Source of the DNA: Reyranella sp. | GTDB lineage: Bacteria > Pseudomonadota > Alphaproteobacteria > Reyranellales > Reyranellaceae | Direction of reading: 5' to 3' | DNA length: 40,506 nt | Assembly: GCA_044377795.1 (NCBI GenBank) | Contig: JBILYJ010000001.1 | Coordinates: 1-40,506, forward strand | Shown: in pieces, positions 3,609 through 37,897 of the stretch | Numbering within the stretch: position 1 is the stretch's first letter | How the letters are laid out: every line of letters starts with the position of its first letter | The notes under the pieces: generated by a model | The model's input: only the letters and a program-made list of their open reading frames with translations | Databases searched by the model: none | What the model was told of the DNA's origin: nothing | Program-made: the position numbers and the translations under genes

Positions 3609-3615
3609 AGGAAGG

Positions 3616-6003: not shown

Positions 6004-6005
6004 GG

Positions 6006-6494: not shown

Positions 6495-6517
6495 CGAAAG
6501 TCCGTTCTGAACCAAGG

Positions 6518-10600: not shown

Positions 10601-10616
10601 AGGCCCCCAAACTCGA

Positions 10617-16688: not shown

Positions 16689-16900
16689 GTCCGTACTCCA
16701 CCCACCATGTCTGATACACTATCGGTCGCGGCCCGTCATCTCTGCACGCACAATATAAGCTATCAAAATGTCAGGGTTAGCGCCCGCTTTTCATCCAGCA
16801 GATCCGTCACCGATCTGCAACTCACTGAGATGTCCGAGATCGAATGCACCCCCCCCGGTCACGGGCTTGCAGGCCGCATCGGCCCTGCGGCGCGGATATG

Positions 16901-18309: not shown

Positions 18310-18411
18310 CTATACTGAACCGCTTTCTATCCAGAACAAGATGATATCTGCCAACGGCTAGGTTGCAGTAATCTGCGCACAAACGACCTGACCCGCTCAC
18401 TATACTGAACA
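18310..18411. promoter_or_regulatory. Probable PuuR/PauR-type operators in the divergent promoter region
   Basis: CTATACTGAAC occurs at 18310-18320 and 18400-18410. The second copy lies in the imperfect palindrome GCTCAC-TATA-CTGAAC. Confidence 0.5.
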
Positions 18412-18422
18412 CAGTAAGCACC

Positions 18423-18971: not shown

Positions 18972-19043
18972 CAAGGCGCAGAAAGATCTCGCGGGCCGGG
19001 CGCCACTGCCGGCCGTCATGACTGTGGGAGGCGCCAGGGGCCC

Positions 19044-22686: not shown

Positions 22687-23760
22687 TCACTTGTGCGGTA
22701 CCTTCTCCGAATTGGTGAGGACACGGCAGGTGGCATTGCCCCCGACATAGTCATCGAGCAGCGGCCAGCCGCGCTCGCCACGCGCGGGCACCAGCGTGAG
22801 AAGGCGCATCGACTCGTCGCGATCCGGGAAGCGGGCGCGATAGAGTTCGGCCCAAGCCATGTAATGGCGGCCGTTGCCGCGCAGCACGAGGAACCCCAGG
22901 TCCTGCCGCTCATCGTCAGCACCGGTGAACGCCGCGAGCCGCCCGGGATCGTCGATGGCATCCAGCAGAAAGGCGATGGCGCGATGGAGGTCGGCGCCGT
23001 CGGGACGGGGCTGCCACACGTCCTGGCCGAATGGCCCCAGCAATTCGCCGATGTAGACCAGTGAGGCGATCGCATGGCGCTGGTACCACAGCGCCCGCGG
23101 CCCGCGCTTCATCTCCAGTGGCAGGCTGCCATCGGCGCCCATCCCGGCGATGGCCGCCCGGGCGTCGCTCTCTGCAACGTCGGCAAGCTCGCGCCGGCCG
23201 GTCAGCACCGCCCACTGGGCCGCGACGGTGGCGCGCAGCAGGGCGTGATTGTTGTGGTTGCTCATGGCTTCGCCCTTGGCGCGGCTCTTCTTCCCACCGG
23301 TCGTCACGTCCTGGAGGGCGACGAGATGGGAAAGCCAGCGCTCGACCTCCTCCGCATGAGCTCTTCCGGCGGGCGCGTGGCGCAAGTCCATCCACGCACC
23401 GAGGATGGCGATCAGCGCGCGACGCAGGGAATAGATCGAGTTGGTATTGCTCTCGGCAGGCCCCGCGTCGACGATCTCGGAGAGCGCACCGGCACGCGCC
23501 CAGCGCAGCAAGGCCTCGACGGCCCTGCCGGCGGCTTCCTCGTCGCGCCGGCCGCGCCAGGCGGCAGCACCCTCCATCTGAAGGAGAGCGAAGGGTTCGA
23601 TCCGGCGGTCGGTTCCCTTGTGCGCAGGCCCTTCCACAGCGACGACCGGCACCGGATCGATCTGGACCGCCGGCGGACGACAGGCATCCTCGGCGGGCGA
23701 CCGGGCGTGCCCGGGCCAGGCGGCGAGCACCAGCAGGACGACAACGATGCAACGGGTCAT
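22687..23760 (-). CDS. algL: Periplasmic alginate lyase (AlgL/PL5-like)
   Basis: Signal peptide from ATG 23760, overlapping the alg8 stop. NHNNH catalytic motif, DGSLPLEMKRGPRALWYQ. Confidence 0.8.
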   Translation of the reverse strand: MTRCIVVVLLVLAAWPGHARSPAEDACRPPAVQIDPVPVVAVEGPAHKGTDRRIEPFALLQMEGAAAWRGRRDEEAAGRAVEALLRWARAGALSEIVDAGPAESNTNSIYSLRRALIAILGAWMDLRHAPAGRAHAEEVERWLSHLVALQDVTTGGKKSRAKGEAMSNHNNHALLRATVAAQWAVLTGRRELADVAESDARAAIAGMGADGSLPLEMKRGPRALWYQRHAIASLVYIGELLGPFGQDVWQPRPDGADLHRAIAFLLDAIDDPGRLAAFTGADDERQDLGFLVLRGNGRHYMAWAELYRARFPDRDESMRLLTLVPARGERGWPLLDDYVGGNATCRVLTNSEKVPHK

Positions 23761-25379
23761 GGCAGCACCGCCAGCTTGAACTCGTGCAGCGTATAGAGGC
23801 TCGGCAGGCGCAGGACGCCCGCATAGCTCACGATGGCAAGCACCAGGACCGACATGGCGACGGCGGTCAGGTAGAACGCGACGCCGTTGCGTATCTGGTC
23901 GGCCAGACCGCCGCCGAAACCCGCCTTCTGGTCGCCGCGGTTGGTCCAGCGCTGCTTGGACAGGCGGAACAGACAGTAGACTTTCACCGCGGCATTCACG
24001 ACCTGGTTCACATAGAGCAGCAGCGGATAGACGAGGTGGACCTCGCGCGAGTAGCCGAACAGCACCACCGCCTGCCAGAGCCGCGTGACCGCAATCCAGA
24101 TGAAGTAGGTGACGAGGAAGGCCGGCGAGACCAGCACGGCACCCATCACGCCGAGGATCGGGCTCACCAGCGTGGTCCACATCGCAATGCGCTGGTCGAC
24201 GATGCACCACCAGATGAAGAAGCCGGTGCGGCGAGGACCCAGCGCGATGGCGCGCGCGCCGTTGCGGAGCATGTTGCCCGACCAGCGGCGCAGGTTCTGC
24301 ACCATGCGCTCGTAGCCCGAGCCTTCGATATGCTCGACGGTGTAGGCGATCGTGTCGGGCACGTACATCATCTTCGCGCCGACGCGCAGCATGTAATACC
24401 AGGTGGTCTTGTCGTCACCCGACAGGAAGCGGAAACGACCCCACAGCCAGTGTTCGAGATGGTCCTCCTCGACCAGCTCGTAGAACTCCGGCCGGATAAC
24501 ATGGTTGACGCGATACAGCGACAGCCGCCCGGTCAGGGTCAGGACCTTGCCGGCGAGCGCGTGGCTCTGCATGGCGATGCGGCGCTGCGCGAACCTCATG
24601 GTGAGCCACAGCTGAATCCACCGCGGGCCGAAGCAGATCACCTCCTCGTCGGTCGTCATCGCCTCGAGCGCGGGGTCGGCGACGAACAGGGAGGTGCACT
24701 TGGCGAGCATGCCATCACCGATGATCGAGTCGCCGTCCATGAAGACGACGACGTCGTCCTCGCGGACTTCGCCGCGCTCACGGCCCTTCGCCATGGCGCG
24801 GAGCGATGCGCCGATACCGTAGCGCTTCCCGGGCGCGGTCTGGCGGGCGATCTCGAAGCGGATCTCGATGTCGGCCGCATGCTCGGCCAGGAAGTCGGCG
24901 ATGATGATCTCGTCGCTTTCGTCACCGGACCCCAGCCAGATCGTGCCGGGCAGGCCGGTCGATCGCAGCTCACGCACGATGCTGTCGACCACGGCGTGGG
25001 TGATTTCCCGCTTCTCGCGGAAGGTCGTCATCATGAAGTGGACCCGGCGCGGACGGTGACCGTCCTGCCAGGCCTGGTCGGCGAGCCGGCGCAACGCAGG
25101 ATAGCGCACGAAGGCGTAGATCCAGGCCCGCACGACGTGGGTGGTCCACCAGCCGAACCGCCAGAGACCGAGGCCGCCGATCACGATCGTGACGTGACGC
25201 GCCGCCGGGTCCCACAGCGTGTTCGGCACCGTCAGAAGCAGGATGACGCAAAGTGCGGCGTACGCCGCCAGGCCACCAAGCACGGTCGGGTTCCACTTCG
25301 CCCAGAAGCCGGGCTGGGGAAGCATGTCGGCATACTGGATGACACCCGGCGTCGGTGGGACCCTTGCCACCGCGTTCAC
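23757..25379 (-). CDS. alg8: Alg8-like GT2 polymannuronate synthase
   Basis: N-terminal TMs (IGGLGLWRFGW), GKR, MDGDS, RFAQR, VLTLTGRLS, FRFLSGDDKTTW, LRRWSGN, DQRIAMWT and QRWTNR all resemble Alg8. Confidence 0.85.
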   Translation of the reverse strand: MNAVARVPPTPGVIQYADMLPQPGFWAKWNPTVLGGLAAYAALCVILLLTVPNTLWDPAARHVTIVIGGLGLWRFGWWTTHVVRAWIYAFVRYPALRRLADQAWQDGHRPRRVHFMMTTFREKREITHAVVDSIVRELRSTGLPGTIWLGSGDESDEIIIADFLAEHAADIEIRFEIARQTAPGKRYGIGASLRAMAKGRERGEVREDDVVVFMDGDSIIGDGMLAKCTSLFVADPALEAMTTDEEVICFGPRWIQLWLTMRFAQRRIAMQSHALAGKVLTLTGRLSLYRVNHVIRPEFYELVEEDHLEHWLWGRFRFLSGDDKTTWYYMLRVGAKMMYVPDTIAYTVEHIEGSGYERMVQNLRRWSGNMLRNGARAIALGPRRTGFFIWWCIVDQRIAMWTTLVSPILGVMGAVLVSPAFLVTYFIWIAVTRLWQAVVLFGYSREVHLVYPLLLYVNQVVNAAVKVYCLFRLSKQRWTNRGDQKAGFGGGLADQIRNGVAFYLTAVAMSVLVLAIVSYAGVLRLPSLYTLHEFKLAVLP

Positions 25380-26611
25380 AGCCGCTTCTCCGCCGGTTGA
25401 TCGACGGGCCGGTCGGCCACCGTGCGGAAGTCGCCCAGCACGGTGTCGAGCGAGCGACGCTGGAAGGAAACCACGGCCGGCGTACCGGGCTCGAGTTCGT
25501 CACGCAGCCGCTCGGCCTGGTCGCCGTCCAAACGGAGGACCGCGCGCGCGGTGCGGTCGAGATCGCCCTGTCGCACGCCACTGTCGCGCGCCTGGCGCCA
25601 GGTGTAGCGGCTCTCGACATCGTCGAGGAACCCGGCCGCGCGGTCGATGGCAACGATGTGCGCGGGCAGGCGCAGGCGCAACGCCGGAATATAGATGGTG
25701 GCGGCATCGCCCACGCTGACGCGCAGGACCTCGTTCTGCGTCAGGAAGGCGTTGATCGTACGCTCGCCTTTGCGCTCATAGACCGCGACCGTGTCGCCGG
25801 CCCGGACGGCGCTGCCTTCCCCGTGGAGCACGCGCATGATGCGGCCATCCCCCGTTGCGGTGACGACGGCGGCGGCGCGACGCTCCTGCCACACGCGCAA
25901 CTCCTCGGTGGCCACGTCGATCTCGGCGCGCGCACGCTGCACGGCAGCCTCCAGCTCGGCGAGCCTGCCGGTGATGCGATTGCCATCGAAGAAGCGGCCC
26001 GCCGCCGCAGAGGCGACGAGGGCGCTGCGCTGCTCCTCGAGGATGCGCGCACGCTTGAGCTGTGCATTGAGGATGGCGTGCTGATTGGTATGGTCTTCCA
26101 GTTTCTGGCGGGGGGCGAAGCCCTGCGCGAACAGCCCGCCGACGCGATCGACCCGCGCCTTGGCGGTGACGAGCTGTTCCTCGAGCGAGGCGATCTCGGC
26201 CTGCACCGCCTTCAGCTCAGCCTGCGTGATGATCAGCGTATCATCACGCTTGGCCTTCTCGGAAACGAGATGCGCCTCATGCTGTCGGAGCGCATGGCGC
26301 GCCCGTTCGAGCTGGACGCTGGCGAGCGACACCTGGCGCTCGACCTCGGGGTCGTGGATCTTTGCCAGCCGGCCGCCGTTCGTCACCGTGCTGCCGGGCT
26401 TGATGCCGACGCCGAGCATCACACCGTCCGACGGCGCCCGGATGGGCTCGACGGCGCCGGCGATGACGGCGGCGTCGACCTCGAGCCGCACCACGTTGGC
26501 GTAGACCAGGGCACCGCCGTAGACGATCGCGGCACCGCCGGCGATCGTCCACAGCAGGCCCATCGTCATGCGACGGACGAGGCTGCGCTTGGTGGTGTTC
26601 GGCTTGGACAT
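25376..26611 (-). CDS. alg44: Alg44-like membrane-fusion (HlyD-type) co-polymerase lacking a PilZ domain
   Basis: Short cytoplasmic N-terminus, one TM, lipoyl-like halves (IRAPSDG, VTATGDG) and a coiled coil. Lies between algD and alg8 and overlaps the alg8 start. Confidence 0.65.
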   Translation of the reverse strand: MSKPNTTKRSLVRRMTMGLLWTIAGGAAIVYGGALVYANVVRLEVDAAVIAGAVEPIRAPSDGVMLGVGIKPGSTVTNGGRLAKIHDPEVERQVSLASVQLERARHALRQHEAHLVSEKAKRDDTLIITQAELKAVQAEIASLEEQLVTAKARVDRVGGLFAQGFAPRQKLEDHTNQHAILNAQLKRARILEEQRSALVASAAAGRFFDGNRITGRLAELEAAVQRARAEIDVATEELRVWQERRAAAVVTATGDGRIMRVLHGEGSAVRAGDTVAVYERKGERTINAFLTQNEVLRVSVGDAATIYIPALRLRLPAHIVAIDRAAGFLDDVESRYTWRQARDSGVRQGDLDRTARAVLRLDGDQAERLRDELEPGTPAVVSFQRRSLDTVLGDFRTVADRPVDQPAEKRL

Positions 26612-26637
26612 GGCACCGATCCTACGGGTCTAACCGC

Positions 26638-28041
26638 TTACCAGCAGACCCCGCGATAGCCCGGCTGCTCCTGGACGGCCGCCGGCAGGCGGACCAGATC
26701 GATGACGGTGCTGTCGGGATGACGCGCCTCGAGAGCGGCGATGAAGTCGGGCGTGCCGTGCGACACGACGATCACGTCGCAGGCGCTGACCAGTTCGCCG
26801 GCCGTGTCGGTCAGCAGGTCCGGCAGGACCTGAAGCGCGACCCGGGTCGCGGGATTCGCGGCCTTGAGATAACCGCCAGCCAGGCGGACACCCGCCGTGT
26901 TGACGTTGCGGTCATGCGCCAGGACCTTGTAGCCGGCGTCGATCAGGCGGCCGAGCAGGTCGATCTGCGGGCTCTCGCGCAGGTCGTCGGTGCCGTCCTT
27001 GAAGGTCACGCCCAGCAGGCCGACCCGCTTCGCGCCGGTCTCGGCGATCAGGCGGAAGGCGTGGTCGATGTGCGAGTCGTTGGACCGCAGCAGGCTGTCG
27101 ATCAGCGGAACCTCGACGCCGTTGGCATGGGCGAGGCCGGTGATGGCCCGCACGTCCTTGGGCAGGCACGAGCCGCCGAAGGCGAAGCCGGGCTTGAGAT
27201 AGTACGGCGAGAGGTTCAGCTTCCGGTCCTGCACGAAGATGTCCATGACCTTGTGGCTGTCGACGTCGGCCGACTGGCAGATCTTGCCGATCTCGTTGGC
27301 GAACGCGACCTTCACGGCATGCCAGGTGTTGTCGACGTACTTCACCATCTCGGCCGCCTCGATCGAGGTGCGCAGCATCGGCGCCTCGATGGAGCGGTAG
27401 ACGCGGGCCAGCATCTCGCCGCTGCGCTCGTCATGTTCGCCGATCACCGTCTTGGGCGGCGCGTAGAAGTCGGCGATGGCCACGCCCTCGCGCAGGAACT
27501 CGGGATGGAAGCACAGGCCGAAGTCGCGGCCGCAGCGCTTGCCCGACATACGCTCGATCTCGGGCAGCACGATGCGGCGGGTCGTGCCGGCCGGCACGGT
27601 GCTGCGCACGACGACCAGATGGTAGTCGCTCTTGAGGGCCAGGGCGCTGCCGATCTCGCCGGCGACGGCCTTGAGAGCCGAGAGATCGACGGTGCCGTCC
27701 GCGCGGCTGGGGGTGCCGACGCAGACGAACGTGATGTCGGTCTCGAGCACGCCATCGAGCGCATTGGTGTGGGCGGTGATGAGATCGTCGGCGACGCCGT
27801 CGGTCAGGGCTTCGCCGAGACCCGCTTCGACGATCGGCGAGGAACCGGCGGCGATCTGTTCGACCTTGCTCAGGTCAAGGTCGATGCCGACGACGCGATG
27901 GCCCAGCTGCGCGAAGCAGGCGACCGACACGGCGCCGACGTAACCGAGGCCGACGATCGAGATCGACGGCAGCGTGAGCGCTTCGTCGGCGGTCGACACG
28001 GCGGAATTGAGGGTGGTGAAGGTGCGGGTCTCGTAAAGCAT
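26638..28041 (-). CDS. algD: GDP-mannose 6-dehydrogenase
   Basis: GLGYVG, CVGTPS, PEFLREG, KLNLSPYYLKPGFAFGGSCLPKD, TDDLRESP and terminal GVCW resemble AlgD rather than UDP-glucose dehydrogenase. Confidence 0.88.
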   Translation of the reverse strand: MLYETRTFTTLNSAVSTADEALTLPSISIVGLGYVGAVSVACFAQLGHRVVGIDLDLSKVEQIAAGSSPIVEAGLGEALTDGVADDLITAHTNALDGVLETDITFVCVGTPSRADGTVDLSALKAVAGEIGSALALKSDYHLVVVRSTVPAGTTRRIVLPEIERMSGKRCGRDFGLCFHPEFLREGVAIADFYAPPKTVIGEHDERSGEMLARVYRSIEAPMLRTSIEAAEMVKYVDNTWHAVKVAFANEIGKICQSADVDSHKVMDIFVQDRKLNLSPYYLKPGFAFGGSCLPKDVRAITGLAHANGVEVPLIDSLLRSNDSHIDHAFRLIAETGAKRVGLLGVTFKDGTDDLRESPQIDLLGRLIDAGYKVLAHDRNVNTAGVRLAGGYLKAANPATRVALQVLPDLLTDTAGELVSACDVIVVSHGTPDFIAALEARHPDSTVIDLVRLPAAVQEQPGYRGVCW

Positions 28042-28089
28042 GGCGTTTCTCCAAGAGGGCGGCCGGTATTGGCCTGTGCCAACCCCTTC

Positions 28090-28104
28090 CCAAGACGCGT
28101 GCCA
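28090..28104 (-). promoter_or_regulatory. Putative sigma54 promoter of the algD operon (-12 variant)
   Basis: TGGC-ACGCGTC-TTGG has correct -24/-12 spacing, with GG in place of GC at -12. Confidence 0.55.
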
Positions 28105-28132
28105 ACCGTGCCAAGAGGAGAAAACGTCGATA

Positions 28133-28145
28133 ATTCAATGACTTA
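28133..28145 (+). promoter_or_regulatory. IHF-like site
   Basis: ATTCAA-TGAC-TTA versus WATCAA-N4-TTR, in an AT-rich patch between the promoter and the enhancer boxes. Confidence 0.45.
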
Positions 28146-28169
28146 AGAAATTGGCTCCAAGCGCAATCG

Positions 28170-28232
28170 TCGCGAATTGCAAATCGCGGCGGGCCGGCCG
28201 GCGCGTCGCGCTTCGCAGGTTGCAAATCGCGC
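28170..28232. promoter_or_regulatory. Paired LuxO-type enhancer boxes upstream of algD
   Basis: TCGCG-AAT-TGCAA (28170-28182) and TCGCA-GGT-TGCAA (28213-28225). Each overlaps a direct repeat TTGCAAATCGCG. Confidence 0.6.
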
Positions 28233-28242
28233 CGCGCGAAGG

Positions 28243-29661
28243 TCAGGCCAAGTCGGCCTGCCAGGCCTGGATTCGACGATAGAGGGTCGAGGGGCTGACC
28301 TGCAGCGCAGCCGCCGCCTTGGGGATGTTGCCGTCGCACTGTGCGATGGCGCGCTCGATGGTCCGGCGCACGATCGCATCGAGAGGTTCGATGGGCATCG
28401 TCGCTTCCGGAAGCGAAGCTGCGATGGATCGAGCTCCCGTCACCGGCACGCCCCCGACGCCACCCTGGAAAGAGCGCGGAAGCATGTCGATTTCCACGGT
28501 TTCGCCCTCGTTCAGCACCACGACGTTGCGGACCGTGTTTTGCAGTTCGCGAACGTTGCCCGGCCAGCCATAGCCGAGCAGCACCGCCTCGACGGCCGGC
28601 GAGAAGGCGGTGAACTTCTTGCCGTCCTCGACGGAGAACTGCCGCAGGAAGTGCCGGGCGATCAGCAGCACGTCATGGTCGCGCTCGCGCAGCGGCGGGA
28701 GATCGACCGGGATGACGTTGAGGCGATAGAAAAGGTCCTCGCGGAAGCGTCCGGCCGCAACTTCCTCCTGGGGATCGCGATTGGTGGCGCAGACGATGCG
28801 CACGTCGACCGGGCGGGGCTTGTCCTCGCCGACGCGTTGTACGGTACCGGTCTGCAGGAATCGCAGCATCTTGGCCTGCAGACCGAGATCCATCTCGCAG
28901 ATCTCGTCGAGGAACAGCGTGCCGCCACTGGCCTGCAGAGCGGCGCCGGCGCGGTCGGCGGTCGCTCCGGTGAAAGAGCCCTTGGCGTGGCCGAATACCT
29001 CGCTCTCCAGCAGATCGCGCGGGATGGCCGCGCAGTTGATGGCGACGAAGGGCTTCTCGCGTCTTCGGCTGAGTTTGTGCAGGGCGTCGGCGCAAAGTTC
29101 CTTGCCGGTGCCGCTCTCGCCGGTCACGAACACGGTCGCCTTGCTCGCGGCCGCGTTCTGCAGGATGCGATAGATCGATTGCATGACCATCGACTGGCCG
29201 ATGAAGCTGCAGAAGCGGTCGCGCCCGGTCTCCTCCTGGATGGCGGCAACCTGGGATTCGAGCTTGCGACGCTGCAGGGCGTTTCGCACGGTGATGCGCA
29301 GACGGTCGGCACTGAAGGGCTTGGTCAGGAAGTCGAGGGCGCCTTCCTTCATGGATTCGACCGCCAGCCGGACAGAGGCCTGTCCGGTTACGATCACGAC
29401 CTCGGTCGGCAATCCCCGGCTGCGGACCTCACGCAGCAGATCTATTCCGTTCATATCGGGAAGATTGACGTCCAGAACCAGGACATCGGGAGGCAGGACG
29501 GTGATGGCAGCAAGCGCCAGCTTGCCGTTGCCGAAAATCTCCACGCTGCAGTTCTCGCTCTTGAGATACTCGGCGTAGGTCTCGGCCAGGGCCGGCGCAT
29601 CCTCGACGATCAAGACCCTGCCGCGCGTGTTCTGCACGGGGCCCCCTTCCCCTGTTCTCAT
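28243..29661 (-). CDS. luxO: LuxO-like sigma54-dependent response regulator (REC-AAA+-Fis HTH)
   Basis: REC Asp intact (LVLDVNLPD), FIGQS linker, SKATVFVTGESGTGKELCA, GSFTGA, LFLDEICEMDL. C-terminal CDGNIPKAAAALQVSPSTLYRRIQAW closely resembles Vibrio LuxO. Alternative GTG start at 29637. Confidence 0.8.
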   Translation of the reverse strand: MRTGEGGPVQNTRGRVLIVEDAPALAETYAEYLKSENCSVEIFGNGKLALAAITVLPPDVLVLDVNLPDMNGIDLLREVRSRGLPTEVVIVTGQASVRLAVESMKEGALDFLTKPFSADRLRITVRNALQRRKLESQVAAIQEETGRDRFCSFIGQSMVMQSIYRILQNAAASKATVFVTGESGTGKELCADALHKLSRRREKPFVAINCAAIPRDLLESEVFGHAKGSFTGATADRAGAALQASGGTLFLDEICEMDLGLQAKMLRFLQTGTVQRVGEDKPRPVDVRIVCATNRDPQEEVAAGRFREDLFYRLNVIPVDLPPLRERDHDVLLIARHFLRQFSVEDGKKFTAFSPAVEAVLLGYGWPGNVRELQNTVRNVVVLNEGETVEIDMLPRSFQGGVGGVPVTGARSIAASLPEATMPIEPLDAIVRRTIERAIAQCDGNIPKAAAALQVSPSTLYRRIQAWQADLA

Positions 29662-29705
29662 ACCTCCTAGTTAGTCTATTGCAGCGGGGCGGGCCAGCGG
29701 GTCCG

Positions 29706-30266
29706 TTACACGGTTTGGCGAGCCCGATGCATGACCGCAAGGCCGAGAGCCGTCGCATGCGGCATAAGATTGAAACCGCCTTGGCCGACATGCAGGGCAA
29801 GCTGGTCGAATGGCAACAGCAGGCGCCGGGCGCCCTCGAGGTCTGTTTCGGTCGGGGTGCCGGTCAGCCGCGCTTCCGTACCATAGAACATGTGTGCTTT
29901 GGCGCAGCGCTGATTGCCGTTCACGACGAACGAGCCGAGCGATACGATTTCGCCGCACTCGAACCCGGTCTCCTCGCGCAGCTCGCGGCGTGCAGCCACT
30001 TCGGGATCTTCGCCGGGCTCGAGCAGGCCGCCCGGGAATGTGAGACACGGGCGCCTGGCACCGTGCTTGTAGCCGCGAAGCATTACGGCGCAGTCGTCGG
30101 CGGTCAGGGCGACCAGGACGACGAAATCCGGCAGGGCGACCTGGAAATAGTCGTCGATCTCGCGCCCGTCGGGCAGCAGGACCCGTTCTCGCCACACCGA
30201 CAGGCGCGGACCGGCGTCGAAGGCCAACGAACGATCGAGGACGCGCCAGGCGGAGTCGGCACACAT
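29706..30266 (-). CDS. NUDIX hydrolase (ADP-ribose/NDP-sugar pyrophosphatase type)
   Basis: Nudix box GGLLEPGEDPEVAARRELREETG, with upstream VLLPDGREI and YKHG. Confidence 0.85.
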   Translation of the reverse strand: MCADSAWRVLDRSLAFDAGPRLSVWRERVLLPDGREIDDYFQVALPDFVVLVALTADDCAVMLRGYKHGARRPCLTFPGGLLEPGEDPEVAARRELREETGFECGEIVSLGSFVVNGNQRCAKAHMFYGTEARLTGTPTETDLEGARRLLLPFDQLALHVGQGGFNLMPHATALGLAVMHRARQTV

Positions 30267-30324
30267 GGAAATCTCTTTCAGGAAGTGGCCCGGCGACGCA
30301 GAGCGCCGCCGGGTCTGGACCAGA

Positions 30325-32223
30325 TCAGATGATGAAGATGTCGTGACCGATATTGGCCAGCATGTCCTGCGGGCCCTTCAGAGTGGCAATGTCGATGGAC
30401 TCGCCCTTGTGGATGTCGAGCACGATATGCAGGCCGTTGTCTTCCATGACGAAGGAGATGTCCTTCGCTCCGTGCTTCAGCATGTAGGCAGACACGTCGA
30501 TGCGGTCGCGTCCGACTTCGAAGTCGTTGATCAGGTCGCCGGGGGACTTGCTGTCGGCCGGCAGGAAGACGAACGTGTCGTTTCCGGCGCCGCCCGAGAG
30601 CGAATCCTTGCCCTCACCGCCGATCAGCACGTCGTCCCCGCTGCCGCCCTTGAGCGTATCGGTTCCCGAGCCGCCGACCAGCCGGTCGTTGCCCGCCCCG
30701 CCGTCCAGCGTGTCGTTGCCGGCACCGCCATCCAGAGCATCGTTGCCGGAGCTTCCGGACAGCTTGTCGTTGCCCATGCCGCCGGCCAGCTTGTCGTCGC
30801 CGGTACCGCCGTCGAGCGTGTCGTTGCCGTTGCCGCCATCGAGCACGTCGTTGCCCGCTCCGCCCGACAGGGCGTCGTTGCCCTCGTCGCCGCTCAGCGT
30901 GTCCTTGCCGTCGCCGCCCGCGAGCTTGTCATCGCCCGTGCCGCCAGCCAGCACGTCGTTGCCGGAGCCGCCGTCGAGGCTGTCATTGCCCGAGCCGCCA
31001 TCCAGCGAGTCATCGCCCGCCCCGCCGCTCAGCGCGTCGTTCCCGGCATCGCCCAGCAGCTTGTCCTGACCGTCGCCGCCCAGGAGCTTGTCGTTGCCCG
31101 AGCCACCGTTCAGCAAGTCGTCGCCCGATCCACCGTCCAGGAGGTCGTCGCCGGCTTCGCCATAAAGCGTGTCGTTGCCGGCCTCGCCGTAGAGCTTGTC
31201 GTTGCCCGAGCCACCGGAAGCCACGTCGTCGCCGGTGCCGCCGTAGAGCGTGTCGTTGCCGGCATCACCCTGGAGCTTGTCGTCGCCGGCGCGGCCGTAG
31301 AGCGTGTCGTCGCCGTCTCCACCCGAAATGTTGTCGTTTTCCGTACCCGGAACGTAGGGCTTGGCCGAGCCGCTCCCCGCCGACTGCGAATCGCCTTCCG
31401 GCGCCCCCGTCTTGCCGTGCGCGTTCAGGACCTTCACGTTGGCGGTGCCGATGTCGATGGTGATGACCGAATCGTCGAAATCGCGGTCGCCGCCGCCCTT
31501 GAGGTCCTCGAAGCCGATACGCACGATGCCCTTGGCGGCATCGACCGTGCCGACCGTGTGCAGGATGCCGTCATTGTTCAGCGGAAGCGTCTTGGCGTAG
31601 GCGGCGCTGTGATACGGGTCGCCCTTGACCTGGACCGCCTTGCCGTCGTCACCGACGAACCAGACCTTGGGATTGACCGAGGTCAGCGTTGCGACCTTGC
31701 CGTCGGCATCGCGGAATTCGAAGCGACCGTTGGCCATCTTCGAAAAGTCGTTCTGCGACGCGCCGTTGGACACGACGAAGAAGCCGATCTGGTCACCGGC
31801 ACGCAGATCGAGCGGCTTGCTGTCACCGGACGACAGGTTGCCGCCGCTGCCCTTGAGGCTGGCGTTCGCCCACAGCACCTGGACGTCGGCGATCTTGCCG
31901 TCGACGACCTTGTACCAGCCGAGCGTGTTCAGGTAGCCCGCGGTCTCGCCATTGAATATGACCGCGCCCTTGTAGTCCTGATCGACCACCAGGCGGTCGA
32001 GCCTGGCGATGGAGGGGCCGGAACCGCCGCCGTACAGCACGTCGTTGCCGGTCTGGCCCGACAGCATATCGTTGCCGCGGCCGCCATAGGCGACATCGTT
32101 GCCGCTATTGGCATAAACCGCGTCGTTGCCCTGTCGGGCGAGGAACAGCTCGTCGATCGAGCCTCCTTTGAGGGTGTCGTCCTTTATCGTCCCGACGACG
32201 GGGCTCTGCATGAACTCAGACAC
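30325..32223 (-). CDS. Secreted RTX Ca-binding protein with DUF4114-like domain
   Basis: N-terminal RTX repeats, then ETAGYLNTLGWY...GFEDLKGGGDRDFDDSV (DUF4114-like), about 28 consecutive GGxGxDxLx nonapeptides and a DLINDFEVGRDRID type-I-secretion-type tail. GTG 32223 has an RBS; alternatives are 32229 and 32211. Confidence 0.85.
   Translation of the reverse strand: MSEFMQSPVVGTIKDDTLKGGSIDELFLARQGNDAVYANSGNDVAYGGRGNDMLSGQTGNDVLYGGGSGPSIARLDRLVVDQDYKGAVIFNGETAGYLNTLGWYKVVDGKIADVQVLWANASLKGSGGNLSSGDSKPLDLRAGDQIGFFVVSNGASQNDFSKMANGRFEFRDADGKVATLTSVNPKVWFVGDDGKAVQVKGDPYHSAAYAKTLPLNNDGILHTVGTVDAAKGIVRIGFEDLKGGGDRDFDDSVITIDIGTANVKVLNAHGKTGAPEGDSQSAGSGSAKPYVPGTENDNISGGDGDDTLYGRAGDDKLQGDAGNDTLYGGTGDDVASGGSGNDKLYGEAGNDTLYGEAGDDLLDGGSGDDLLNGGSGNDKLLGGDGQDKLLGDAGNDALSGGAGDDSLDGGSGNDSLDGGSGNDVLAGGTGDDKLAGGDGKDTLSGDEGNDALSGGAGNDVLDGGNGNDTLDGGTGDDKLAGGMGNDKLSGSSGNDALDGGAGNDTLDGGAGNDRLVGGSGTDTLKGGSGDDVLIGGEGKDSLSGGAGNDTFVFLPADSKSPGDLINDFEVGRDRIDVSAYMLKHGAKDISFVMEDNGLHIVLDIHKGESIDIATLKGPQDMLANIGHDIFII
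30567..31323 (-). repeat. 27-bp coding tandem repeats (RTX nonapeptides)
   Basis: About 28 degenerate GGxGxDxLx units counted in the translation. Boundaries approximate. Confidence 0.85.
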
Positions 32224-32243
32224 GATCAATCTCTTTCAAAAGG

Positions 32244-32280
32244 GCGCGCGCCGTTTTCCCGCCCCGAAAGGAGCGCGCGC
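32244..32280 (-). other. Intergenic stem-loop ahead of the RTX gene RBS
   Basis: GCGCGCGC...GCGCGCGC stem with an inner TTTC/GAAA pair, followed by CCTTTT on the minus strand. Confidence 0.45.
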
Positions 32281-32317
32281 GGTTCAGGAACGAATGGGGC
32301 GATGGCCGAGGGCCGGA

Positions 32318-32692
32318 TCAGACCCGGCCGTAGACGTCGTCGAAGCGCTCGATATCGTCTTCGCCGACATAGTCACCGCACTGGACCTCGATCAGCACCA
32401 GCGGCCGATCCGTGCGATTGGTCAGACGATGGATCGCCCGCAAGGGGATGTAGACGGACTGGTCCGGCTGCAGTTCACGCTCCGCGCCGTCGACCTCGAC
32501 GATCGCGGTACCCTGGACCACGACCCAGTGCTCGGCGCGCCGCGTATGGCGCTGGCGCGAAAGGCTGCCGCCCGGGGCGACGACGATCCGCTTGACCTGG
32601 TATCCAGGATCGGCGGCAATCGATTCGTAGGCTCCCCAGGGCCGCACGACCGGCGTGGCGAGAGAGCGATGTTCAACGGCGCTGGCTTGCAT
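32318..32692 (-). CDS. Stand-alone type II mannose-6-phosphate isomerase cupin domain (C-terminal half of ManC/AlgA)
   Basis: RPWG, QVKRIVV, LSRQRHTRRAEHWVVVQG, IEVQCGDYVGEDDIERFDDVYGR. ATG 32692 with a GAGGA RBS. Confidence 0.88.
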   Translation of the reverse strand: MQASAVEHRSLATPVVRPWGAYESIAADPGYQVKRIVVAPGGSLSRQRHTRRAEHWVVVQGTAIVEVDGAERELQPDQSVYIPLRAIHRLTNRTDRPLVLIEVQCGDYVGEDDIERFDDVYGRV

Positions 32693-32725
32693 GGTGTCCT
32701 CGCGAGATGTGGCGAGGTGCCAGAC

Positions 32726-32741
32726 TGCAACCGCCAGGCCA
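32726..32741 (-). promoter_or_regulatory. sigma54 promoter of the cupin-RTX-NUDIX-(luxO) unit
   Basis: TGGC-CTGGCGG-TTGCA has exact GG-N10-GC spacing, about 35 bp upstream of ATG 32692. Confidence 0.7.
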
Positions 32742-32808
32742 GCGGACCGCAAGTCGTCAGAACGTTGAAAACAAACGACAATTGGCGGAGCACCCCGGAA
32801 TTCGGCCA

Positions 32809-32850
32809 TCGCGTTTTGCAACGGGGCCGCCCGGTCTTCGCGAATTGCGA
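32809..32850. promoter_or_regulatory. Paired LuxO-type enhancer boxes upstream of the cupin gene
   Basis: TCGCG-TTT-TGCAA (32809-32821) and TCGCG-AAT-TGCGA (32838-32850). Confidence 0.6.
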
Positions 32851-32854
32851 CGCG

Positions 32855-35185
32855 CTATGGCCGTTCCATCGCGGCAAGCGCCTGTCGGCCGCTCGTGAGC
32901 AGGAGCGTCACGTGCCCCGCGATGTCATCGTCGGAGGCCAGTTCCACTGCGGCGGCCGCTTCAGCGGCACGTGATGCCCCGAACTGACCGAACAGGCCGG
33001 CGAGTCGATGCGCGGCCTTGCGCAGGCGCGACGGATCGTGCGCCTGAGCGGCGGCATCCAGTTCGCGCAGCGATTCATCCGCATCCTGCCGAAACCGCAT
33101 CAGAAGCCTGGCAAAAGCCTCCTCCCCCACCGACTGGCGCAACTCTTCAAGGGTGACGAGATCCATGTCTTCCTCCACCGCCGGCACGACCGGCATTGTC
33201 CGTCCCGTCGCGCGCTCGATGACAGCCGCAAGCTCGAGCGGGCGTATCGGCTTGGCAAGACAGTCGTCGGCTCCGGCCGCCAGGGCGCGTGCCTTGTCCT
33301 CGGGTTGGCCGAAGGACGTCAACGCAACGATGGGCACCGCAGCCGCCGGCCCATCGAGGGCGCGGATCGCCCGGATCGCCGCCAGCCCGTCCATGACCGG
33401 CATCCAGACGTTCATCATCACGAGATCGAAGCGGCTGGTCTTCGCGGCGGCGAGCGCAGCGGAACCGTCGGCTACGATTTCCACGCGATGGCCCATCTTC
33501 TCCAGCAGCGCCCGGACCAGGATCTGATGTGACGGCACATCCTCCGCCGCCAGAACCGAAAGGTGCCTGTGTATGCGGGCGTCCGGGAGGGCAGCCGCCG
33601 CAACGTCGGTGGCGGCGACATCGAAGTCGAGTTCGAACCAGAAAGTCGATCCCGCACCGGGGGTACTGTCGACACCGATGGCTCCGCCCATGCTTTCGAC
33701 GAGTTGCCGGCAGATCGCCAGTCCCAACCCGGTGCCGCTGGCCTGCCGGACGGCGGCCTCTGCCCCTTGCTCGAACGGCATGAAGAGGCGGCTTCGCATC
33801 TCCGGCGAGATGCCGATGCCGGTGTCCTCTACGGCGAAACGCAAGCGAACCGAGCCGGCGTGACGTTCGGCCAGTCTGCAGGACAGGGTCACGGCGCCGC
33901 CATCGGTGAACTTCACCGGGTTGCCCAACAGATTGAGCAGAATCTGGTTCAGACGCCGCGCATCCCCTTCCAGTCGCGGCGGGACGTCGGGCGCCAGTTC
34001 AGACGCGATTCGGAGCCGGGCAGCGCCGGGGAGGCTGCGCGCCACCGCGACGGCGCCTTGCACCAGGTCCTGCACGTCGAGAGGACGAACCTCGAGATCC
34101 GAGCGCCCGGCATCGAGGCGGGAGAAGTCGAGGATGTCGTTGATCAGTGAGAGCAGATGAGTCGCCGACTTCTCGATCAGCTCGACGTGCTGCTTCTGCA
34201 CGGCATCCAGCGGCGTGTCGACCAGCAGGCTCGACAGACCGATGACGGCGTTCATCGGCGTGCGGATCTCGTGGCTCATGCGGGCGATGAAATCCGACTT
34301 GGCGCGGTCGGCGATCTCGGCGGCTTCCTTGGCCTGACGAAGCTCGTATTCCCGCTGCTTGCGCACGGTGACGTCGCGCAGGCACGCGACGACCATGTGC
34401 CTTCCCGACGATCGTGCGGCCGCGATGGTGACCTCGCAGAAGAACTCGCTGCCGTCGGCCCGCACCGCCCTCATTTCGTGGCGGGCCTTGCCGTCGGGCA
34501 CCTCGCCGGCCTCGACGTAACGCCGCAGCCCCACTTCGAGGCCGGGTCGGAAGCGCTCGGGGATCACGATGTCGACCGGCCTGCGGCCGATGATATCGTC
34601 GCGCCGGTAGCCGAGCACGGTTTCGACCGCTTGATTGACGTCCACGGCCCGGCCCGTCCCGTCGACGCAGAATATGCAGTCCGGGGTGGCATCCATGATC
34701 GCGCGCAGCCGCTCTTCGCTCCGCTGCAGCGCGGCTTCGCGTTCCTTGATCCCGGTGATGTCTACACGCAGGCCGACCGTCTCGCCCGTGGGCGTCCGGC
34801 GCTCGAGAATGCGCACCCAACGGCCGTCCGCGGTGCGCTGTTCGATGGGACCCTGCGGATCACGATGCTGGCGCAGCCGCTCCGCTATCCATGCCTCCTC
34901 GCGGCCCCGCGCCTCCGGATACTGGCCGCGCCGCACGCCTTCCCGGAGTCCGTGCTCGTAGGAGGTGCCGACGCCAATCAGGTCGGCACTGTCGCGATAC
35001 ATCTCGCGATAGCGTTCGTTGTACAGGGCGATGTGGTCGTCGGCATCGAACAGCACGAACCCGTCGGGCAAGGCTTCGAGGGCCGCGAGCAGCAGCGCGC
35101 CGTCCTGCGTCGCGGTGCGCGGCGCGGACACCGGGTCGGGCTGGACGTCGACCTGTCCGCCCGGGGATTTGTTCGCCTCTGTCAT
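32855..35185 (-). CDS. Cytoplasmic hybrid histidine kinase PAS-PAS-HisKA-HATPase-REC(D>N)-Hpt
   Basis: MSHEIRTPMN, NLLGNPVKFT, DTGIG, GTGLGL. Receiver reads FDLVMMNVWMP; Hpt has AHRLAG. Confidence 0.9.
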   Translation of the reverse strand: MTEANKSPGGQVDVQPDPVSAPRTATQDGALLLAALEALPDGFVLFDADDHIALYNERYREMYRDSADLIGVGTSYEHGLREGVRRGQYPEARGREEAWIAERLRQHRDPQGPIEQRTADGRWVRILERRTPTGETVGLRVDITGIKEREAALQRSEERLRAIMDATPDCIFCVDGTGRAVDVNQAVETVLGYRRDDIIGRRPVDIVIPERFRPGLEVGLRRYVEAGEVPDGKARHEMRAVRADGSEFFCEVTIAAARSSGRHMVVACLRDVTVRKQREYELRQAKEAAEIADRAKSDFIARMSHEIRTPMNAVIGLSSLLVDTPLDAVQKQHVELIEKSATHLLSLINDILDFSRLDAGRSDLEVRPLDVQDLVQGAVAVARSLPGAARLRIASELAPDVPPRLEGDARRLNQILLNLLGNPVKFTDGGAVTLSCRLAERHAGSVRLRFAVEDTGIGISPEMRSRLFMPFEQGAEAAVRQASGTGLGLAICRQLVESMGGAIGVDSTPGAGSTFWFELDFDVAATDVAAAALPDARIHRHLSVLAAEDVPSHQILVRALLEKMGHRVEIVADGSAALAAAKTSRFDLVMMNVWMPVMDGLAAIRAIRALDGPAAAVPIVALTSFGQPEDKARALAAGADDCLAKPIRPLELAAVIERATGRTMPVVPAVEEDMDLVTLEELRQSVGEEAFARLLMRFRQDADESLRELDAAAQAHDPSRLRKAAHRLAGLFGQFGASRAAEAAAAVELASDDDIAGHVTLLLTSGRQALAAMERP

Positions 35186-37716
35186 GCGGCGCCGGGTCGG
35201 CTCGAACGGACCGCCAGAACGGCAGCGTCGCCAGCGGACAGGAGAACATCCGTGTGCGCCTGCACGTCTTCGTCGCCGGCACGCTCGACCGCGACGGCGG
35301 CATCGGCGGCATCCGTCGCGCCGAACTGGCCGAACAGGCCGGCGAGGCGATGGGCGGTCCTGCGCAACAGGGCCGGCTCGCTCCCGGCGGCGCGCAGTTC
35401 GTCAAGGGACAGGCTGGCGTCCTGCACGAAGGCGTCAATCAACCGGCTGAATGCCTCCGGGCCGACCGCATCGTGCAACTCGTCGAGGGCGGCACGATCC
35501 ACCGCACAGGCCGCCATGGGTACGACGCCGCCGCCAGGCGCGGCGTTTCGGTCAATCGCCGCGTCGAGCTCATCGACGCGGATCGGCTTGCTGATGTGGT
35601 CGCTCATCCCCACAGCGATGGCCTTTTCCCGGTCACTCGGCTGGGCAAAAGCGGTAAGCGCGATGATCGGTATCGCCGCCACCGGGGCGCCGAGGCTCCT
35701 TATGCGCCGGGTCGCCTCATAGCCATCCATGCCCGGCATCTGGATGTCCATCAGGATCAGGTCGAAGGCCCCGTTGCGCGCCGCCGCCACCGCTTCGCCG
35801 CCGTCGGACACGACCTGCACGCGATGGCCCAGCTTCTCCAGCATGGCGCGCGCGACGATCTGGTTGGCCGGCGTGTCTTCGGCCACCAGGATACGGAGGC
35901 TCCTGCGGACGTGAGTCCGGGCCGCCGGAGAACTCCTCACGCCACCCGCAGGATCGATCGCCCGACCGAACGGAAGCTCGAACCAGAAGGTCGAGCCTTG
36001 CCCGAAACTGCTCACGACACCGATCTCCCCCCCCATGAGATCGACAAGCCGCTTGCAGATCGCCAGCCCCAGGCCGGTGCCGCCCTTCCGACGCGCCAGA
36101 CGGAGGTCTCCCTGCTCGAACGGCTGGAACAGCCGGCCCTGGACCTCAGGCGCGATGCCGACACCGGTGTCCGTAACGGAAAAGCGGAGTCGCAGGGTCG
36201 CGGCGCCCTGGTCGACGACCGTGGCCGACAGGGTGATGGCGCCCCGCTCGGTGTACTTCACGGCGTTACCCAGCAGGTTCAGGAAGATCTGGTTCAGCCG
36301 GTCGCCATCCCCCGAGACGAAGGTCGGGATGTTCCCGGCAAACGCCATCGCGATGTCGACCCGCTCGGCGCCCGGCAGGCCGCGGGCGATGTCGATGGCG
36401 CTCTCGGCGAGACGATGCAGGTCGAAGTCCGATTTCTCGACCGTGAGGCGCCTGGCCTCGAGGCGCGAGAAGTCGAGAATGTCGTTGATGATCTGGAGCA
36501 GGTGCGCCGCCGAATCCTCGATGATGCGAACATAACGCTTCTGCGTTTGCCCGAGCGGGGTATCGGCCAGCAGGTTCGACATGCCGATGACGGCGTTCAT
36601 CGGCGTGCGGATTTCGTGGCTCATCATCGCGAGGAAGTCGGTTTTTGCCTGCGTCGCCTCCTCGGCGTGGCCGCGGGCCCGCCTGAGGTCGGCCATGGTC
36701 GCCTCCTGGCGGGTCAGAAGCGTCGCGATCCAGCCGGTCAGGCCGAGCAGCAGCAGCGAGAACAGAGCGGTCCCGATGCCGACGAACCACGCCGTGGTGT
36801 ACCAGAGTTCGAGGATCAGCCCCTCGTTCGCCGTCACGTTCACGACCAGCGGGTAATCCTTCAGCGTGCGCGGCGCCACGATCCGCATCTGGCTGGCCGA
36901 GTTGTCGGCGAGGCGCGGTCCGGTCGTGACGGTGGCGCCGGCTTCATTGCCGCGCCCGATGATGTCGCTGAACACGGGCTGCTCGCGAAACGACTTGCCG
37001 ATCAGGTCTTCCCGGGTCGGATAGCGGGCGAGCAGGATGCCGTCGCTGCGGAACAGGGAGATCGCGCTCTCTTCACTGATGTTCACCGCCTTGAAGAAAT
37101 CCTGGAAGAAGCTGCTCTCGATGCCCGTCAGGACCAGCCCCAGCACCTCTCCGGTCCGGCTCCGGATCTTGCGGGCGAGATAGAAGGTCCATGTGCCGGT
37201 TCCGCGGTTCTTGACTGGAGCGCTGAGAAAGACGTCGAGCCGCGGATCGGCCATGTGGGCCTTGAAGTAGTCACGGTCCGCCAGGTTGATCCGGGGTGGT
37301 GGATAGGATCGTGTGAAACTGATGACGTCGCCATTCAACGCCACGATGGTGGCCACGTCGACCTGGGGCACGCTGCTCGCCTTGTTGCGCAGCATGTCGA
37401 AGATCTCCTGCGTGCCCATCTCGCGCCGCAGCTCGTCCTCGTTGGCGATGTCGGCATCGTGCACGCGGTCGCTGATGCTCTTGAGCACCAGGTCGGCGGC
37501 CTTCATGGTCTGGTTGGTCGAGGCCGCCAGGATCGTCGACATGTTGGAGAGATTGACCTTCCACTCCTCGATCGTCGTCGTGCGGGCCTGCCACAGCATC
37601 AGGGTTGCACCCATCACCACCAAGCAGACCGTCAGGACGCCTCCGGCGATCGCCGCGCGGCCACGCGGGCTCATCTGGTACCGAAACGCGGGTCGGGCTG
37701 CGGCAGTTTCATCCAT
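35182..37716 (-). CDS. Membrane hybrid histidine kinase TM-dCache-TM-HisKA-HATPase-REC-Hpt
   Basis: Two TMs around a Cache-like domain (ADRDYF, SAPVKNRGTGTW). MSHEIRTPMN, NLLGNAVKY, DLILMDIQMP, AHRLAG. Stop overlaps the next kinase start. Confidence 0.92.
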   Translation of the reverse strand: MDETAAARPAFRYQMSPRGRAAIAGGVLTVCLVVMGATLMLWQARTTTIEEWKVNLSNMSTILAASTNQTMKAADLVLKSISDRVHDADIANEDELRREMGTQEIFDMLRNKASSVPQVDVATIVALNGDVISFTRSYPPPRINLADRDYFKAHMADPRLDVFLSAPVKNRGTGTWTFYLARKIRSRTGEVLGLVLTGIESSFFQDFFKAVNISEESAISLFRSDGILLARYPTREDLIGKSFREQPVFSDIIGRGNEAGATVTTGPRLADNSASQMRIVAPRTLKDYPLVVNVTANEGLILELWYTTAWFVGIGTALFSLLLLGLTGWIATLLTRQEATMADLRRARGHAEEATQAKTDFLAMMSHEIRTPMNAVIGMSNLLADTPLGQTQKRYVRIIEDSAAHLLQIINDILDFSRLEARRLTVEKSDFDLHRLAESAIDIARGLPGAERVDIAMAFAGNIPTFVSGDGDRLNQIFLNLLGNAVKYTERGAITLSATVVDQGAATLRLRFSVTDTGVGIAPEVQGRLFQPFEQGDLRLARRKGGTGLGLAICKRLVDLMGGEIGVVSSFGQGSTFWFELPFGRAIDPAGGVRSSPAARTHVRRSLRILVAEDTPANQIVARAMLEKLGHRVQVVSDGGEAVAAARNGAFDLILMDIQMPGMDGYEATRRIRSLGAPVAAIPIIALTAFAQPSDREKAIAVGMSDHISKPIRVDELDAAIDRNAAPGGGVVPMAACAVDRAALDELHDAVGPEAFSRLIDAFVQDASLSLDELRAAGSEPALLRRTAHRLAGLFGQFGATDAADAAVAVERAGDEDVQAHTDVLLSAGDAAVLAVRSSRPGAA

Positions 37717-37753
37717 CTTTCAATGTCCAACGGGAGCTTCAAACGATTCGGGT

Positions 37754-37769
37754 TGCAAGAGCAGCGCCA
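37754..37769 (-). promoter_or_regulatory. sigma54 promoter of the kinase pair
   Basis: TGGC-GCTGCTC-TTGCA has exact spacing, about 38 bp upstream of ATG 37716. IHF-like AATCAC-TGCG-TTT at 37784-37796. Confidence 0.7.
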
Positions 37770-37841
37770 TTCGCATTCTACCGAATCACTGCGTTTAAAG
37801 CATCGGATAGCTACCAAATGTGGCTCTGGACGCGCTCGGAT

Positions 37842-37897
37842 TTTCAACTTGCGACGCAATCGCAGACTCGCCGGGCCAGCCCGTTTGCATCTTGCAA
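37842..37897. promoter_or_regulatory. Paired LuxO-type enhancer boxes upstream of the kinases
   Basis: Perfect palindrome TTGCA-TCT-TGCAA (37885-37897) and weaker TTTCA-ACT-TGCGA (37842-37854). Confidence 0.65.

Follow-up and report, generated by a model that had tools for sequence, protein, structure and literature searches.

Predicted sigma54 promoters with paired LuxO-type boxes probably connect a LuxO/SypG-family activator to an alginate-type module in Reyranella

Introduction

A contig of Reyranella sp. (assembly GCA_044377795.1, contig JBILYJ010000001.1) carries an alginate-type polysaccharide operon, an RTX-repeat protein, a LuxO-like sigma54 activator and two hybrid histidine kinases, all on the minus strand. 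The stretch analysed, here called the window, is 40,506 nucleotides long and corresponds to contig C471 of a fragmented genome of 5.34 Mb (672 contigs, 66% GC, 98% complete). The question raised by this locus is whether these genes form one regulon and, if so, which protein controls it. As judged from sequence comparison, three promoters in the window share a real design that is most likely read by the resident LuxO-family activator and that includes the polymer operon, the RTX protein, the operon of the activator itself and the kinases. It is thus probable that conserved sigma54-type promoters with paired LuxO-type boxes, activated by this LuxO/SypG-family protein, direct the formation of an alginate-type mannuronan together with an RTX matrix protein.

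Results and discussion

Promoter design and conservation

Upstream of the algD operon, the cupin-RTX-NUDIX-activator unit and the kinase operon, a sigma54-type -24/-12 element is followed further upstream by two candidate activator boxes (Table 1), at the positions given in a first-pass annotation of this DNA. Its distances were reproduced upon remeasurement, with the proximal box starting 66, 68 and 73 bp from the -24 end and the two boxes being 43, 29 and 43 bp apart. All six boxes start with TTGCA or TCGCA on the minus strand. Their presence was confirmed, while the form T(T/C)GC(A/G)-N3-TGC(A/G)A had to be revised to a symmetric consensus, TYGCR-N3-YGCRA. The AT-rich, IHF-like patches described earlier are real but modest, with 16, 14 and 13 A/T in the best 20 bp, and their IHF-like matches need up to two mismatches to a consensus from general knowledge. 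A search for NtrC- and Fnr-type sites with consensus sequences from general knowledge gave no match in the three upstream regions.

The genome holds 199 single boxes, which is no enrichment over the 189-221 counted in four order-3 Markov genomes. Strict pairs with a spacing of 26-46 bp occur four times in the genome versus 0, 0, 0 and 0 times in the Markov genomes, and all four are accompanied by a sigma54 element. A background-level frequency, which had been named as grounds for rejecting the regulon, therefore applies to single boxes but not to pairs. The genome scan with a position weight matrix (PWM) suggested in the same annotation, trained on 30 boxes from other genomes only, returned six places, five of which have a sigma54 element pointing into a gene. 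This gives five promoters of the design in the genome, three in the window and two on other contigs, and all five point into coding genes.

Conservation at orthologous loci had likewise been put forward as a check, and the boxes are kept at all three promoters. The alg8 gene is present in 13 of 130 genomes of the family and 12 regions were examined; one (G099) has no upstream DNA and another (G006) holds a more distant module, leaving ten. The box pair of the algD promoter is kept in 10/10 (nine exact, one with one mismatch), as is its TGGCACG-N4-TTGG element. For the cupin promoter, the pair is kept in all nine genomes where the cupin gene was seen (eight exact, one mismatched), and for the kinase promoter in 9/9 (seven exact, two not), each with a sigma54 element; in G079, neither cupin nor kinase lies within the stretch examined. 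In the alignments, the boxes and the -24/-12 elements are kept, with bases turning over inside the consensus, while the spacers diverge. Chance matches in GC-rich DNA would agree with the background frequency of single boxes, with four further strict boxes inside window genes and with a GC-rich box overlapping the algD upstream region. However, pairing, position, conservation and phylogenetic profile oppose this explanation, and conservation largely refutes it, so that its probability is negligible.

Two further features of the algD promoter were observed. A palindrome, TTGGC-N4-GCCAA, lies at 28066-28079 (minus strand), just downstream of the -12 and over the predicted start site; it is exact or near-exact in nine of the ten orthologous promoters and could serve as a repressor site or form a 5' hairpin. 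Overlapping each algD box, at an offset of 7 bp, is another box with one mismatch (28177-28189 and 28220-28232), which gives three half-sites in a row that are kept in orthologs.

The protein probably reading the boxes

Of the 18 family genomes with the activator, 14 have at least two box pairs, versus 3 of the 112 without it. In a class-wide sample of 401 genomes, a stricter pair was seen in 8 of the 73 with a LuxO-like gene versus 2 of the 328 without. Related genomes are not independent, however, and Fisher values overstate this co-occurrence. The helix-turn-helix (HTH) domain of the activator closely matches that of Enterovibrio LuxO, and the region upstream of Enterovibrio luxO carries TTGCATTTTGCAA. 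The published LuxO site is TTGCAWWWTGCAA (PMC10162802). The receiver Asp, Walker A motif and GSFTGA loop of the activator are intact, and rpoN is present in the genome. Ten Reyranella genomes that were checked hold one to four sigma54 activators each, mostly one NtrC-like and one NtrX-like; in this assembly, only the gene in the window and a cut-off NtrX were found. In G090 (L097:7137-7707), the module's activator has two internal deletions and a syp-linked paralog some 13 kb distant is intact; none of the boxes has been lost. This single case suggests that the activator paralogs are interchangeable.

Another conserved factor, such as NtrX or some other regulator, might bind the boxes, in which case the LuxO-like gene would be a passenger or one of several inputs. 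NtrX is indeed present in every Reyranella genome checked, and no LuxO-like gene was found in G112 (96% complete, three real-looking pairs) or in G033 (two pairs). On the other hand, NtrC and NtrX are universal in the genus whereas the pairs are rare in genomes without the activator (3 of 112), and the activator has a LuxO-like HTH that would suit a box identical to the published site of LuxO. Moreover, one of the G112 pairs precedes an Hpt kinase like the one adjoining the syp-linked paralog of G059, which fits loss or non-assembly of the activator gene. We consider a different binding protein very unlikely. As a separate observation, a pair at L180:8930-8986 in G112, with a similar one in G051, lies about 900 bp upstream of a gene whose product has an N-terminus that, we presume, resembles RpoN.

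Whether the activator, which we regard as the reader of the boxes, is a LuxO or a SypG has no single answer. Its best NCBIfam match is the LuxO hidden Markov model and its best PDB match a LuxO structure. Yet with the LuxO profile NF041946 it scores 585.9 bits, below the cut-off of 800, compared to 821 for Enterovibrio LuxO and 650 for the SypG-like paralog of the latter. Its Ser152 aligns with the linker Gly between the receiver and central domains of LuxO (G141/G145, numbering inferred), a position that is S, G or N in Reyranella homologs and is described as conserved in all LuxO proteins (PMC4878744). Upstream sites of the TTGCA-N3-TGCAA type near sigma54-type promoters are as expected for LuxO. 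No stand-alone LuxU was found next to the activator, both Hpt matches in the window being kinase C-termini. Rfam gave no RNA match in the window, and no Qrr was found in the genome, but control genomes gave no match either.

As a LuxO-family REC-AAA+-HTH protein linked to polymer genes, the activator also resembles SypG, ScvE and RbdG. It is 51% identical to both Enterovibrio LuxO and the activator of the Enterovibrio syp locus, and in a FastTree phylogeny (74 proteins, 460 columns, 19 close relatives left out) neither LuxO nor SypG is a supported sister. Its closest named relatives are from Reyranella (Alphaproteobacteria), with 85-98% identity. Paralogs with 75-82% identity lie in or near syp-like loci (L126, L128, L129 and L130/L182) of four other Reyranella (G059, G080, G081 and G090). 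These loci encode SypA (37-41%), SypC (53-56%), SypD (25-26%) and epimerase (50-54%) homologs in four loci and SypE (28-29%) in two, and have divergent sigma54-type promoters with LuxO-type boxes. In the present genome, sypA and sypC gave no match, and the activator is not in a syp/scv locus. The Syp enhancer is given as TTCTCA-N3-TGMDWN (PMC10162802), which the boxes in the window do not fit. The designation 'LuxO-like' thus holds as regards family and HTH, but the protein is not LuxO proper, given its score, its Ser at the Gly position and its syp-linked closest paralogs. From these comparisons, the system is one that works like SypF-SypG and uses LuxO-type sites, a strict member of neither family.

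Kinases and the regulon beyond the window

In kinase 1, the four relay residues (His, Asp, Lys and the Hpt His) are all intact. In kinase 2, the phospho-accepting Asp of the receiver is replaced by Asn, both here and in five other genomes, with Asp in G014 and G034, so that no relay is expected through its own receiver; its Hpt His is intact. An additional Ala-to-Pro change is found in its N box here, and two genomes have one kinase only. Two Hpt-fused kinases had been described, and both are indeed Hpt-fused, but they are not equals.

The regulon was also called self-contained, which does not hold. Two more conserved promoters are located on C160 and C410, and the genes for ManC, PMM and type I secretion are found on other contigs, where the PWM scan called no box pair. 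The C160 promoter precedes genes for a periplasmic binding protein and a HAMP hybrid kinase, with the same design in all four other genomes examined. The C410 promoter precedes a GAF-PAS hybrid kinase gene, with the same design in G062. Neither kinase has an Hpt domain. At the C410 locus (L170:1-112), the ortholog match ends 113 bp from the contig end and is followed by unrelated, AT-richer DNA, possibly an insertion.

In Vibrio fischeri, RscS and HahK signal through the Hpt of SypF, and this Hpt alone complements a sypF deletion, while BinK opposes SypG and LuxU can replace SypF (PMC10162802, PMC12369376). The latter two findings leave room for an arrangement in which the linked kinases are targets or BinK-like phosphatases, the phosphoryl group comes from another Hpt protein and the loop is negative or externally driven. 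The degenerate receiver of kinase 2 in six genomes, its N-box change and three other Hpt-domain matches in the genome would be in line with this. It is opposed by kinase 1, which retains its four relay residues and has a homolog directly upstream of the activator in G010, in G100 and in distant taxa. Such an arrangement is considered unlikely, and a relay from kinase 1 to the activator is preferred.

The polysaccharide module and the RTX protein

The gene assignments of the first-pass annotation in the module were borne out by domain and profile matches. AlgD matches GDP-mannose dehydrogenase 1MFZ best in the PDB (E 2e-122, versus 3e-76 for UDP-glucose dehydrogenase). Close relatives of the GT2 synthase are labelled 'glycosyltransferase Alg8' or 'mannuronan synthase' by JGI, the Alg8 identity resting on these source labels and on synteny. 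The 'HlyD' gene is Alg44-like, with 33% identity (E 6e-69) to residues 148-541 of a 547-amino acid (aa), PilZ-bearing homolog from L033. The PilZ domain of that homolog has no match in this genome. The four operon genes are intact, with 66-99% identity, in ten other genomes, and the Alg44-like protein has 410-412 aa in all 12 Reyranella copies (the window and 11 others).

The full-length model of the RTX protein (predicted local distance difference test, pLDDT, 88) has a long beta-roll and a beta-rich N-terminal domain, and matched only RTX and other beta-solenoid folds; its N-terminal part modelled without an alignment reached a pLDDT of 33. We infer that it is a calcium-binding matrix protein, and that the NUDIX and cupin proteins serve sugar-nucleotide supply.

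The regulation may be as proposed while the product is not exported alginate but a different or cell-bound mannuronate polymer, or while the operon is decaying. AlgE (PF13372) was not found in this 98%-complete, 672-contig genome, so that the export route is unexplained, and the Alg44-like protein has no PilZ domain, whose arginines are reported to be essential for alginate in Pseudomonas (PMC4436075). AlgK/AlgE, AlgG/AlgX and AlgIJF are all missing from the locus; for AlgK and AlgG, no genome-wide search with dedicated profiles was made. Distant modules hold Sel1-repeat, MBOAT and other genes that are absent here, the acetylase and PilZ parts of other modules have no match in this fragmented genome, and G078 retains only an algD-like gene under the same promoter. 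Four intact genes in ten other genomes and a fixed Alg44 length are, however, unlike decay. All in all, we regard another or cell-bound product as somewhat unlikely, and an alginate-type mannuronan as the probable product.

Distribution in other genomes

Among the 401 class genomes, 16 others have an Alg8 homolog and 14 regions were examined. The same close Alg8 clade (49-59%) is found in five of these, mostly with RTX, algD and ManC genes. Boxes beside sigma54-like elements together with a LuxO-like gene are present in four of these five alphaproteobacterial loci, in three within about 17 kb of alg8. The gammaproteobacterial L033 has the module, a box beside a sigma54-like element and the activator together. 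The distant Alg44 proteins of the same clade, including that of L033, keep PilZ. In nine more distant alginate loci, boxes are absent or mostly GC-rich, with lenient sigma54 matches in two of these loci, and two of three checked genomes with such loci have LuxO-like genes elsewhere.

Related arrangements were seen next to other genes. In L125 (G078), the same kinase-activator-promoter set would drive only an algD-like gene and a GGDEF protein gene, facing cellulose bcsC. In the betaproteobacterial Hydrogenophaga (L012:6547-6601), a 42-bp box pair lies upstream of an adjacent hybrid kinase and LuxO-like gene. A conserved protein of 600-700 aa without Pfam match accompanies fuller alginate-type modules (L219:5407-7353, L216:15387-17474 and L215:1-1828), where its gene adjoins MBOAT genes and, in two loci, Sel1-repeat genes.

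Proposed circuit

In the circuit that we propose, kinase 1, a periplasmic dCache sensor, would autophosphorylate and relay the phosphoryl group through a His-Asp-His(Hpt) path to the receiver Asp of the activator. Kinase 2 would mainly be a second Hpt or a modulator. The unlinked, Hpt-less kinases (the periplasmic-binding-protein/HAMP pair and the GAF-PAS kinase) may signal into these Hpt domains, in the way that RscS and HahK act through SypF. The phosphorylated activator would then bind the box pairs 60-130 bp upstream and loop to the sigma54 polymerase, upon which transcription starts. The activator gene is the last in one target unit and the promoter design is common to the four sensors, so that the circuit would act as a positive-feedback switch. 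AlgD is expected to supply GDP-mannuronate to Alg8 and the PilZ-less Alg44, with AlgL trimming or clearing the polymer, and control would be mainly transcriptional rather than via cyclic di-GMP (c-di-GMP).

Besides the genomes with pairs but no detected LuxO-like gene, the additional Hpt matches and the missing export and modification parts, the following observations count against this circuit. The -12 element of algD is a non-canonical TTGG, not TTGC. G010 has a 57% activator homolog and no pairs, and 65 of the 73 class genomes with a LuxO-like gene have no strict pair. The distant loci have either single boxes or boxes separated by 17-22 bp, and lenient criteria were applied there to sigma54 elements. 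G511 and G006, both of the same Alg8 clade, have neither a LuxO-like gene nor boxes. In G006 (L106), the same alginate-RTX-NUDIX-cupin module is combined with a LuxR-type response regulator and a hybrid kinase, an apparent regulator swap. Finally, the GAF-PAS kinase encoded on C410 is cut short at 315 aa in this genome, versus 822 aa in G062.

A more far-reaching version is doubtful, though conceivable: a four-gene, c-di-GMP-independent mannuronan synthase that has shed PilZ, placed under a LuxO-type self-inducing switch with four kinases and giving an all-or-none matrix, with the LuxO family being a class-wide interchangeable plug-in for matrix polysaccharides of either the syp or the alginate type, and Vibrio quorum sensing one use derived from it.

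The proposed circuit extends the LuxO/SypG type, on which most work concerns Vibrionaceae, to Alphaproteobacteria and a pathway of the alginate type, and exact sites, promoters and a predicted relay are now available for testing. The PilZ-less Alg44 offers a natural test of how c-di-GMP activates alginate polymerization. A minimal synthase without c-di-GMP input, if true, would also be useful for alginate production.

Gene layout of the window

The minus-strand order is kinase 1, kinase 2, cupin, RTX-DUF4114 protein, NUDIX, activator, algD, alg44-like, alg8 and algL, with successive intergenic gaps of -4, 162, 88, 58, 44, 201, 26, -4 and -4 bp (Table 1). A division into three units agrees with the long upstream regions that precede kinase 1, cupin and algD. 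Sigma70 promoters and terminators show no excess across the region, and no minus-strand terminator was called between the cupin and activator genes except one within the RTX gene. The cupin is 51% identical to a region of C571 adjoining a ManC match. In four sets of metatranscriptome contigs, short and near-identical fragments of algD, the RTX gene and other genes are present; they give no strand, start or level and were not used as evidence.

A complete cellulose operon (bcsQABC, bcsZ) with two GGDEF genes and one EAL gene is located at 495-16719, 6 kb from the module, and no box pair was called in this region. Two open reading frames without Pfam match are present at 18327-19019 (230 aa) and 37971-38531 (186 aa); a homolog of the latter adjoins the syp-like locus in L183.

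Table 1. Features of the predicted regulon in the window
Feature	Position	Strand	Remarks
AlgL-like alginate lyase (PF05426), 357 aa	22687..23760	-	hydrophobic N-terminus resembling a signal peptide; start inferred from 4-bp alg8 overlap
Alg8-type GT2 synthase, 540 aa	23757..25379	-	PF13641
Alg44-like membrane-fusion partner without N-terminal PilZ domain, 411 aa	25376..26611	-	
AlgD-type GDP-mannose 6-dehydrogenase, 467 aa	26638..28041	-	
Sigma54-type -24/-12 element of the algD operon, TGGCACGCGTCTTGG	28104-28090	-	
AT-rich IHF-like patch, algD promoter	28130..28152		partly conserved
Proximal candidate activator box, algD promoter	28170..28182		
Distal candidate activator box, algD promoter	28213..28225		
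LuxO/SypG-family sigma54 activator, REC-AAA+-HTH	28243..29661	-	Ser152 at the position of the LuxO linker Gly
NUDIX hydrolase	29706..30266	-	also adjoins the module in L106 and L216
RTX-repeat protein with DUF4114 domain	30325..32229 (start 32229-32211)	-	
Stand-alone mannose-6-phosphate isomerase cupin, 124 aa	32318..32692	-	PF01050
Sigma54-type element of the cupin-RTX-NUDIX-activator unit, TGGCCTGGCGGTTGC	32726..32741	-	
Proximal candidate activator box, cupin promoter	32809..32821		
Distal candidate activator box, cupin promoter	32838..32850		
Kinase 2, PAS-PAS-HisKA-HATPase-REC-Hpt	32855..35185	-	
Kinase 1, dCache-HisKA-HATPase-REC-Hpt	35182..37716	-	
Sigma54-type element of the kinase operon, TGGCGCTGCTCTTGC	37754..37769	-	
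Proximal candidate activator box, kinase promoter, TCGCAAGTTGAAA	37842..37854		one mismatch here; most orthologs match fully
Distal candidate activator box, kinase promoter	37885..37897		perfect TTGCA-N3-TGCAA

Comparison with known systems

According to the published accounts, SypG, ScvE and RbdG are LuxO paralogs that drive polysaccharide genes via sigma54 and an Hpt-fused kinase (PMC10162802, PMC8941931, PMC12369376, PMC10804989). The Reyranella system resembles Aliivibrio fischeri SypF-SypG, V. parahaemolyticus ScvE and V. vulnificus RbdG in that a LuxO paralog would use upstream sites to activate several sigma54 promoters in a polysaccharide locus. As with SypF-SypG, an Hpt-fused hybrid kinase adjoins the activator, and unlinked hybrid kinases would feed the Hpt. 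Unlike in syp, the output is a synthase-type alginate module rather than a Wzy-type one, the boxes are of the LuxO type (TYGCR-N3-YGCRA) and not of the SypG TTCTCA type, and the promoter design is common to four sensors. Loci of the scv kind have been described from 28 genera, of which two are alphaproteobacterial (PMC8941931); Reyranella is not among the two named there.

With the Vibrio LuxO-LuxU-Qrr system (PMC4878744, PMC10162802), the locus shares the activator family, a near-identical HTH and the same 13-bp site, usually paired. It differs in the profile score of the activator (586 bits versus a cut-off of 800), the Ser at the autoinhibitory linker Gly, the fusion of Hpt to the kinases and the protein-coding targets.

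Compared to the alginate operon of Pseudomonas and Azotobacter and its AlgB-KinB control (PMC4064291, PMC4436075), the AlgD, Alg8, Alg44-like and AlgL genes and an NtrC-family regulator are shared; in Pseudomonas, an NtrC-family regulator and sigma54 also act on algD (PMC4064291). Reyranella, in contrast, has four genes only, a PilZ-less Alg44, no AlgE found and no epimerase or acetylase genes in the locus, and its regulator is LuxO-like with hybrid Hpt kinases. Atypical, rearranged alginate operons without algKE or modification genes have been described in environmental bacteria (bioRxiv 10.1101/769745); no regulator, RTX-DUF4114 partner or PilZ-less Alg44 was seen in that account, whose supplements may list such loci. 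Among literature listings and the beginnings of abstracts, with most subscription papers outside the search, no account was found that places an alginate-type module under a LuxO-family regulator or describes an Alg44 naturally devoid of PilZ.

The use of the LuxO chassis with protein-coding polysaccharide targets, which had been thought possibly new, is already published for SypG and ScvE (PMC10162802, PMC8941931). What is likely new is the wiring, namely a LuxO/SypG relative placed on an alginate-type pathway, in a circuit design known from Vibrio biofilm genes.

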